Shown here in pieces: positions 1 to 3,529 of a DNA stretch of 64,000 nucleotides; the stretch's first letter is position 1, and each line of letters opens with the position of its first letter. Source of the DNA: Alphaproteobacteria bacterium (GTDB lineage: Bacteria > Pseudomonadota > Alphaproteobacteria > MPNO01); the NCBI GenBank assembly GCA_964291675.2, contig OZ219866.1, positions 1,280,001-1,344,000 of the forward strand, written 5' to 3'. Made by a program: the position numbers and the translations under genes. The notes below the pieces were generated by a model, which worked only from the letters and a program-made list of their open reading frames with translations, made no database searches and was not told where the DNA came from.

Positions 1-1
1 C

Positions 2-580
2 GGCGACCTCTACGGCGCCGCCGCCTCGCCGGTGGTCAAGGCGCTGTCGCTGGTGCCGGAAGCCAAGCGGGCCTATTGGGACCTCGCCGAGGAGCACTAT
101 TTGCCGGGCAGCGAGATGACCGACTTCGCGACCGGGGTCCGTGCCATCGACCGCATGCAGATGGAGCTGGTCGCGGGCCGGGTGTCGGCGCTCCATCAAT
201 GCGTCTACTGAACCAGCGCCCATGCGTTCATGCTCCGTGCGAGCACAGAGGTTTCGGGCGCCGATTTCGACCTGGGGGCCGTCACCGGCGAAGCGACGGA
301 TGACGGCGGCATCGCCGGCGGGGTGCTGCTGCACGGCTTCGCCGAGGCGGTCACGCTCGGCGACGCGGCGCGGACGGCCGAGCTGAGGGACGCGCTGGTC
401 GACCGGCTGGGCGAGGCGGCGATGATCGACGCGGCGGCGACCGCGGCGGCGTTCCACGGCTTCGTCCGGGTGGTCGACGCCACCGGCGCCCCGGTGGCGG
501 GAGCGGCGGGCGGACGGGTGACCCCCGAATTCCGCCAGGCGCTCGGCATCGACGAGTTCTACGGCGCGCGCAACCCCTGA
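2..580 (+). CDS. AhpD/CMD-like alkylhydroperoxidase-related protein, probable selenoprotein (5' end outside window; TGA 209-211 read as Sec)
   Basis: Frame open from base 2: ...MELVAGRVSALHQCVY*TSAHAFMLRAS... continuing in frame into ORF 230..580. Matches the AhpD core ELxAxxVSxxxxCxYCxxxH with the second Cys replaced by TGA. C-terminal AFHGFVRVVDATG is CMD-like. Confidence 0.85.
231..245 (+). promoter_or_regulatory. Putative bacterial SECIS hairpin
   Basis: Stem TGCTC(231-235)/GAGCA(241-245) with loop CGTGC (G-U in the loop). Loop starts 25 nt after the in-frame TGA, consistent with the bacterial SECIS model. Confidence 0.65.
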
Positions 581-586
581 CGCGGT

Positions 587-1456
587 TCAGAAGAGCGACG
601 GCGCCTCCGGGTCGTGGCGCGCGTGGCGCGCCCTGGCGGCGCGGGGGCTGGCCACCGCGTAGCAGTAGATGCAGCCATGCGGGCAGCTGTCATAGGCGCC
701 GATGTCGCGCGCCTCGTGGCAGGCGCAGCCCGGCCGGTTGCCCTTCTCCCTGGCCGCGATCGGCCGGCCCGCCACGTCGCCGAGCCGCCCCGCGTCGATG
801 CAGCGCGCCTCCCTCGCGCCGCCGGCGGCGAGGTCGGGCTGGGCGCAGATCGTGGCCTGCATCCCGAACGCCCTTGCAGTGGCGGCGAGCTCGGCGACCG
901 TCGCCCGCTTGCGCTCGACCGCGGGGTCCTCCCAGGTCAGCCCCGACGCCCGCCCGGCGGCGGCGAGGTTGCGGCGCGTCTTGCGATAAAGGCTCGCGAA
1001 CGACAGCACCGCCTCGTCGACCGCCCCGGCGAGCGCCTCGGCGAGGCGGGCGAAGCGTTCGACATGGGAGCAGAGCGGCGTGGCGCCGGTCACGATGATC
1101 GGGTCGCAGCGCCAGACCGCGGCGCGCGGGCCGAAATCCCGGGCGATCGCATGCACCTGTTCGGCGGCCCGCGCGGCGTCGATCACCGAGGTTTCGAGCA
1201 GCCGCGGATAGCCGGTGATCGTGTAGTGGACGACGAAGGGGATGCCGTCCGATGCCAGGCGTTCGAGCACCGGGAGGAACGGCGCCGCGTTGCGCGTCCA
1301 GAACACGAAGCCGGAGACCGACTCCCGGTCGAGGCGGACGGTGTAGGGCTTGCCGTAGGGGTTTCGCACCGTGCAAAACCCGGCCGCCAGGCGTCGTTCG
1401 AACCACGCGCCGTAAAAGGCCGGGATATCGGTGCGGTAGCTCGCGGATACGATCAT
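587..1456 (-). CDS. DUF1848 family protein (radical-SAM-like C-terminal Cys cluster)
   Basis: Starts MIVSASYRTDIPAFYGAWF; contains FVFWTRN, WRCDPII and C-terminal CAC...DIGAYDSCPHGCIYCYA. It is the real 3' part of the 1367-aa antisense ORF. Confidence 0.85.
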   Translation of the reverse strand: MIVSASYRTDIPAFYGAWFERRLAAGFCTVRNPYGKPYTVRLDRESVSGFVFWTRNAAPFLPVLERLASDGIPFVVHYTITGYPRLLETSVIDAARAAEQVHAIARDFGPRAAVWRCDPIIVTGATPLCSHVERFARLAEALAGAVDEAVLSFASLYRKTRRNLAAAGRASGLTWEDPAVERKRATVAELAATARAFGMQATICAQPDLAAGGAREARCIDAGRLGDVAGRPIAAREKGNRPGCACHEARDIGAYDSCPHGCIYCYAVASPRAARARHARHDPEAPSLF

Positions 1457-1486
1457 CGGCCATACCCCTGCGGGACGCGGCGAGCG

Positions 1487-1515
1487 GTTGTACCGCCGGT
1501 TCCCCGACCCTATAT
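1487..1515 (+). promoter_or_regulatory. RpoH (sigma-32)-type heat-shock promoter of dnaK
   Basis: GTTG-N18-CCTATAT about 100 bp upstream of the dnaK ATG; close to the alphaproteobacterial CTTG-N17/18-CYTATNT consensus. Confidence 0.65.
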
Positions 1516-1612
1516 ATCCGCAATCGCAGTTGCGTTTCGGGCGTGAGACTTTCGGGGATGCCGCGGGCGCCGTCACGGGCCCTTGGCGTCCGCTGCAATA
1601 ACGGGGATTGAA

Positions 1613-3529
<1,917 letters not shown>

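Follow-up and report, generated by a model that had tools for sequence, protein, structure and literature searches.

The first bases of the stretch of DNA analysed here (the window, 64,000 nucleotides, G000:C2:1280001-1344000) raise the question of how a reading frame that meets a TGA codon and continues beyond it should be read. In frame 2 no stop is met from window base 2 until an in-frame TGA at 209-211, after which the same frame runs on to a TGA stop at 578-580, as an earlier note on this DNA had claimed and as re-reading of the frame confirmed. Upstream of the internal TGA the frame reads ...ELVAGRVSALHQCVY-TGA-TSAH..., the full read-through display is ...MELVAGRVSALHQCVY-U-TSAHAFMLRAS..., and the translation around the codon, with TGA as U, is ...MELVAGRVSALHQCVYUTSAHAFMLRAS.... 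The plain ORF list holds two fragments only, 2..211 (open at the 5' end of the window) and 230..580 (116 aa), so that the splitting of the gene described in the same note, with 230..580 as the downstream part, was found there as well. In this study, we consider it very probable that the locus is the 3' portion of one gene of 367 codons that belongs to the NF041238 family (motif C-x-Y-U-T), in which UGA 209-211 is decoded as selenocysteine (Sec). We regard the in-frame TGA, with near certainty, as a true selenocysteine codon of an AhpD-type redox enzyme.

The 5' edge of the window cuts the gene, and only its last 192 codons (residues 176-367, window 2..577 on the forward strand) lie inside, the first 175 codons being located outside. 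An ATG start preceded by GGAGGA was identified 524 bases upstream of window base 1 (L001:977 = G000:C2:1279477), and the complete product has 367 aa with U as residue 245. NF041238 is an NCBIfam equivalog named 'AhpD_rel_CFYUT, alkylhydroperoxidase-related (seleno)protein' with a curated cut-off of 175 bits. The whole protein scored 425.3 bits against this model, with residues 12-362 aligned to profile positions 1-356 of 357, and the window part scored 216.1 bits; the family profile ends (356 of 357) at the true stop codon 578..580. In the genome scan the window copy scored 416.7 bits, and all five copies found in the genome scored between 368 and 497 bits. The score, the full-length coverage and a motif C-x-Y-U-T whose U comes from an in-frame TGA thus all place the protein in this family, with which it also shares length (about 357), the position of Sec and a stem-loop after the UGA. 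The window motif is CVYUT whereas the family name gives CFYUT, and V, F, A, R, T, I, E, L and H all occur at the variable position in relatives.

Models of related but distinct families scored below their thresholds, namely Pfam PF02627 CMD (18.9-20.3 bits, gathering threshold 23), the TIGR01926 peroxidase-related enzyme (34.3 bits, cut-off 81.8) and TIGR00777 AhpD (10.4 bits, cut-off 191.95), therefore 'alkylhydroperoxidase' is to be taken as a family resemblance and the activity as putative. While the CMD score is below threshold, both the profile search of the PDB and the fold match given below nevertheless speak for homology. The label 'AhpD-like' used previously for this gene is right as to the AhpD-type relation but not as to the family, since the classic AhpD-like selenoprotein is TIGR01926/COG2128 and the window gene belongs to the separate family NF041238. 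As described in passages of two marine metagenome studies (PMC1088965, PMC2398784), the TIGR01926/COG2128 selenoprotein carries CxxU on an AhpD-type helix pair with the same relation of Sec to Cys; it is a single domain of ~180 residues, whereas the window protein has an extra N-terminal lobe of ~150 residues. In the Sargasso Sea selenoproteome of 2005, four sequences were described as a new selenoprotein family under the name 'hypothetical protein 1'; they share a conserved CXXU motif and have a stem-loop 3' of the TGA (PMC1088965). A 2026 review equates the NF041238 family with it (PMC13188914). The family has thus been described before, together with its Sec codon and motif, and the window gene is an ordinary member; as the family has been in selenoproteome surveys since 2005 and is curated by NCBI, the locus brings nothing new on the genetic code or on selenium biology. 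Simple ORF callers will split the window gene and each of its four paralogues into two fragments.

Decoding of UGA as Sec requires us to ask what machinery the organism has, and the presence of such machinery, until now assumed, was borne out by selA, selB, selC (tRNA-Sec) and selD, all above curated cut-offs. selA scored 565.5 bits (cut-off 267.9), selB 455.7 bits (cut-off 242.25), selD 314.4 bits (cut-off 125) and tRNA-Sec 76.7 bits (gathering score 47), the last being called tRNA-SeC with anticodon tca (UCA) by ARAGORN. A second Rfam match just over threshold proved to be tRNA-Ser(tga) and not a second tRNA-Sec. selA, selB and tRNA-Sec are found together at G000:C2:2837316-2841709. Here selA adjoins selB, and tRNA-Sec follows on the same strand, ~830 nt past the end of selB and separated from it by one ORF. 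The tRNA-Sec gene is outside selB, unlike the nested arrangement that a passage of the review describes in some Alphaproteobacteria (PMC13188914).

The genome encodes five paralogues, each with a single TGA, always at the same column, in the context C-[V/F/R]-Y-TGA-T; the other four are 35-47% identical to the window copy and are located at G000:C2:580921-581970 (+), G000:C2:2502342-2503397 (-), G000:C1:738871-739923 (+) and G000:C2:951686-952723 (+), all with the same downstream hairpin. Five copies are present in 10 of 11 genomes of the same genus and four in the remaining one. The family was detected in 48 of 61 related genomes, where one TGA is present in 129 of the 132 matched rows; the three rows without it come from the N-terminal part and stop short of the column. 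An even sample of the class yielded the family in 14 of 301 genomes with TGA in 24/24 stretches, and a phylum-wide sample in 0 of 400 other genomes. When the codon was read directly, TGA was found in 56/56 and in 39/39 homologous rows, 95 loci in all, from several phyla; the 39-row set consists mostly of metagenome-assembled genomes titled Defluviicoccus sp., Rhodospirillales, Alpha-, Gamma- and Deltaproteobacteria, Actinomycetota and Candidatus Moanabacter. No Cys codon was found at the column in these 95 rows, nor in the 61 related, 301 class-sample and 401 phylum-sample genomes (roughly 760), although the bracket in the family name '(seleno)protein' suggests that NCBI leaves room for Cys forms. 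Conservation of the protein runs on both sides of the TGA in 28 aligned sequences.

The nearest Cys-bearing relatives came from the profile search of the PDB, in which 6k40 (CVYC) and 3c1l (CYYC) have Cys at the TGA column; these are single-domain AhpD-like proteins of known structure, in whose CxxC motif the second Cys occupies this column. Each of the refuting conditions given in the earlier note was put to the test, and none was borne out. Neither TGC nor TGT occurs at the codon in contigs of two public runs: record 1 of X1 covers window positions 1-220 and record 10 of X2 covers 62-220, with 0 differences over codon 209-211 (X2 belongs to another study, X1 possibly to the source sample). 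Homologues are not pairs of separate proteins but single frames of ~350 codons with one TGA and both flanks conserved, and a Cys does stand at this column in a homologue, D. radiodurans AhpD 6k40, whose CVYC is exactly aligned.

A candidate SECIS hairpin was identified at 231..245 on the forward strand from the fold, the consensus structure and pair counts. Its stem is formed by 231-235 (UGCUC) and 241-245 (GAGCA), and its loop by 236-240 (CGUGC), with a spacing of 24 nt from UGA to loop. The window copy has 5 pairs only, the sixth position being an unpaired A.C, in a family whose stem is 5-6 bp. The hairpin was recovered in the RNAalifold consensus structure, 82.5% of cells were paired across 35 sequences vs 22-49% with the partner slid by 1-3 columns, and its covariation score was reached by 0 of 500 shuffles. 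Among 78 distinct sequences three pairs are invariant, and pair 24:36 is GC in 69, GU in 6 and CU in 3. Compensatory changes are seen at pair 23:37 (UA 33, UG 35, GC 2, CG 1, 7 unpaired) and at pair 22:38 (CG 46, AU 8, UG 3, GC 2, 19 unpaired).

The codons under the hairpin point in the same direction, with the reservation that the conserved peptide L-R-A/E-S accounts for part of the base conservation. All 95 rows have G as the second base of the loop; the Arg codon of the loop is CGT in 54/56 rows and in all 5 paralogues, in a genome of 69.4% G+C where CGT makes up 5.7% of Arg codons; the Leu codon is CTC in 95/95 rows (genome usage 41.9%) and the Ser codon AGY in 95/95. The stability of the hairpin did not exceed that of its shuffles (z -0.98 over 67 nt and -0.25 over 27 nt), thus the case for a SECIS is one of conservation and not of energy. 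When window 150-330 was compared with Rfam (E up to 10), the five matches were weak and unrelated, the best with E 1.9, and no SECIS family was among them. The short stem, the 5-nt loop, the loop G and the covariation at two pairs are those expected of a bacterial selenoprotein stem-loop, and the candidate hairpin presumably binds SelB.

Other explanations of the interrupted frame have to be weighed against these observations. A lone in-frame stop in a conserved frame does resemble a fresh nonsense mutation, and the gene could accordingly be a pseudogene, or the TGA a sequencing or assembly error for TGC or TGT. However, the same TGA column is present in all five paralogues despite their divergence and in every one of the 95 rows from other genomes, the contigs of two runs agree on it, and conservation 3' of the codon is as strong as 5' of it; we therefore give this explanation practically no weight. 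Alternatively, the locus might make two products, a 244-residue N-terminal protein that ends at UGA 209-211 and a second protein from the ORF 230-580. The ORF list does hold 230..580 with an ATG, and Sec insertion is expected to face competition from termination at UGA when selenium is scarce. The break would nevertheless split the catalytic helix between C-x-Y and T-x-x-H, where the AlphaFold model has one helix across residues 243-260 with high confidence; ATG 230 is no conserved start but falls on a hydrophobic column that is M or L in most rows and is occupied by codons of the CTG, TTC and CTC type in the paralogues; and no Pfam family was found for either piece alone, which makes two separate products highly improbable.

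It is also conceivable that the UGA is read through by a near-cognate Trp or Cys tRNA, or under a reassigned code, and not by Sec-tRNA, and sequence alone cannot tell read-through from Sec insertion. TGA is an ordinary stop in this genome, however, and the gene itself ends in TGA; the genome has a complete Sec system; the column aligns with the redox Cys of relatives, a classic Sec/Cys pair; and a conserved hairpin with a loop G follows the codon. Read-through of this kind thus has very little chance of being correct. The reading of UGA as Sec, which had been put forward as an inference, is supported by the machinery, the five paralogues, the invariant TGA and the conserved hairpin taken together.

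With a single Sec-containing chain as the preferred reading, UGA 209-211 would be decoded by the SelA, SelB, SelD and tRNA-Sec of the organism itself, the short hairpin in the coding sequence directing Sec decoding through a loop that is presumably bound by SelB, and the second UGA (578-580), which has no such hairpin 3' of it, would terminate translation. The redox core, E230-x11-C242-V-Y244-U245-T-x2-H249, spans window 164..223 (+), with codons for Glu at 164-166, Cys at 200-202, Tyr at 206-208, Sec at 209-211 and His at 221-223, and E230, C242, Y244, U245, T246 and H249 are invariant in the 28 aligned sequences. Passages of PMC3141380 give the proton relay of P. aeruginosa PA0269 as Glu36/Cys48/Tyr50/Cys51/His55 and that of M. 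tuberculosis AhpD as Glu118/Cys130/His132/Cys133/His137. The spacing in the window protein is that of both relays, with Sec for the second Cys, and the earlier placing of the TGA at the second catalytic Cys, with the His at the expected distance, agrees with the PA0269 relay and with the CVYC of 6k40.

The C-terminal lobe would accordingly hold an AhpD-type active site made up of Glu230, Cys242, Tyr244, Sec245 and His249, with Sec245 in place of the second Cys of the AhpD-type CxxC. Sec245 may attack an oxidised substrate, whether a peroxide, a sulfenic acid or the disulfide of a partner, Cys242 would resolve the intermediate as a selenenyl-sulfide, and a cellular thiol system would then re-reduce the pair. 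To judge by homology, the chemistry is most likely a selenol/thiol oxidoreductase cycle.

The AlphaFold2 model (mean pLDDT 89.8, pTM 0.91) is all-helical and composed of two halves. A Foldseek search by itself returned nothing at E <= 0.001. The profile search of the PDB matched 6k40 with E 8.9e-15, CVYC being aligned to CVYU, and the C-terminal half (residues 159-353) superimposed on this D. radiodurans AhpD with Z 12.8 and rmsd 3.1 over 172 aligned residues; 2oyo (Z 12.6) and 2prr (Z 12.4) also matched this half (residues about 159-355). AhpD proper (M. tuberculosis 1gu9/1knc, PA0269 2o4d, D. radiodurans 6k40) has the same Glu...Cys-x-(His/Tyr)-Cys...His spacing and matches the fold with Z 9.4-12.8 over residues about 159-353. 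The window protein differs from it in having Sec for the second Cys, no ahpC neighbour, and two lobes in one chain where AhpD proper is a homo-oligomer of small subunits.

The best match over the whole chain was human sestrin-2 (5dj4, 5t0n, 5cuf), with Z 16.8 and rmsd 3.4 for 239-242 residues aligned over model residues 1-339, at 9-10% identity; the likeness is one of architecture only, and the sestrin (PA26) family was absent among Pfam matches at E up to 10. We take sestrin to consist of two AhpD-like halves in one chain, with its redox Cys presumably in the N-terminal half, whereas the CxxU of the window protein is in the C-terminal half. The debrominase Bmp8 (6ohi, 6ohj), which has the CMD fold, matched with Z 12.5-12.6 and rmsd 2.9-3.0 over 174-175 aligned residues, as good as the AhpD proteins, at 15-16% identity; it was missed by the sequence profile search. 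Bmp8 acts as a thiol dehalogenase.

A second CxxC was identified in the N-terminal lobe, C52-P-L-C55 (L001:1130-1141, upstream of the window), which is present in 25 of the 28 aligned sequences and missing from the paralogue-5 group, and which may serve as a further site for redox chemistry or metal binding. Comparison of the N half with the C half by hhalign gave a weak match (probability 8.7%, E 0.0038) in which CPLC is aligned with CVYU; an internal duplication of the halves would fit this alignment, which is suggestive only. On our reading, two AhpD-type lobes are fused in this protein, and the catalytic CxxU centre belongs to the C-terminal one.

It may be asked whether NF041238 could instead represent an obligately selenium-dependent, sestrin-like double-AhpD class that acts on some other substrate and is no peroxide-defence adaptor, the five copies being substrate-specialised isoenzymes and C52/C55 an internal relay that recycles the selenenyl-sulfide of Sec245 and Cys242. 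Reductive dehalogenation or another selenol-specific reduction could serve as an example, by analogy with Bmp8 and the deiodinases. This alternative is compatible with the lack of Cys forms in roughly 760 genomes and 95 rows, with the whole-chain match to sestrin-2, with a fold match to Bmp8 that equals that to AhpD, and with the lack of an ahpC partner gene among the neighbours scanned; we nevertheless consider it unlikely. The selenoprotein family assigned here may merit some attention from specialists, being Sec-only in everything sampled, present in five diverged copies in the genus, and sestrin-like and two-lobed in its predicted structure.

The gene neighbourhoods were compared by scanning 20 neighbour ORFs around the five copies, among which neither a common neighbour nor a peroxiredoxin gene was found. 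Copy 1 is flanked by a Rieske oxygenase, an AsnC regulator and TrxB, copy 2 by PanB, GntR and DUF6166, copy 3 by an EamA transporter, the window copy by Peptidase_M78, DsbA-like and DUF1848 genes (the scan reached as far as the gene before the DnaK-like ORF), and copy 5 by a CMD protein, L31 and an ABC transporter. A link to thioredoxin reductase was considered and dropped, the TrxB/AsnC/Rieske neighbourhood of copy 1 being confined to loci of the same genus (11 of 30). The CMD-family protein just downstream of paralogue 5 has 192 residues and is encoded on the opposite strand (L089:7109-7684 (-) = G000:C2:952794-953369); its best NCBIfam match is NF053654 'YciW-related (seleno)protein' with 61.8 bits, far under the cut-off of 310.

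Some further observations were made on the read data and on the surroundings of the window gene. In both X1 and X2 the De Bruijn contigs are interrupted near 220 and 235, and word depth is several-fold higher between 181 and 270, as expected if the motif and hairpin (window about 191-264) form a short repeat that is near-identical among the paralogues. In run X3, labelled as a sponge metagenome, one contig over 25-899 has 53 differences and is about 94% identical to the window, thus a close relative of the organism is present in the X3 sample. Upstream, an ORF for an IrrE/ImmA-like metallopeptidase (Peptidase_M78, 53.9 bits) is located at L001:1-435 (+), ~1,070 to 1,500 bases before window base 1 and on the same strand as the selenoprotein gene, and the interval between the two looks non-coding. 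Downstream, a DUF1848 gene (Pfam PF08902, 270.9 bits) at window 590-1519 (-) converges on the selenoprotein gene, its stop (587-589) lying 6 bases from the stop at 578-580. It is followed by a 648-codon ORF at window 1583-3529 (+), which from its motifs we take to be a DnaK-like chaperone, and then by a 376-codon ORF.
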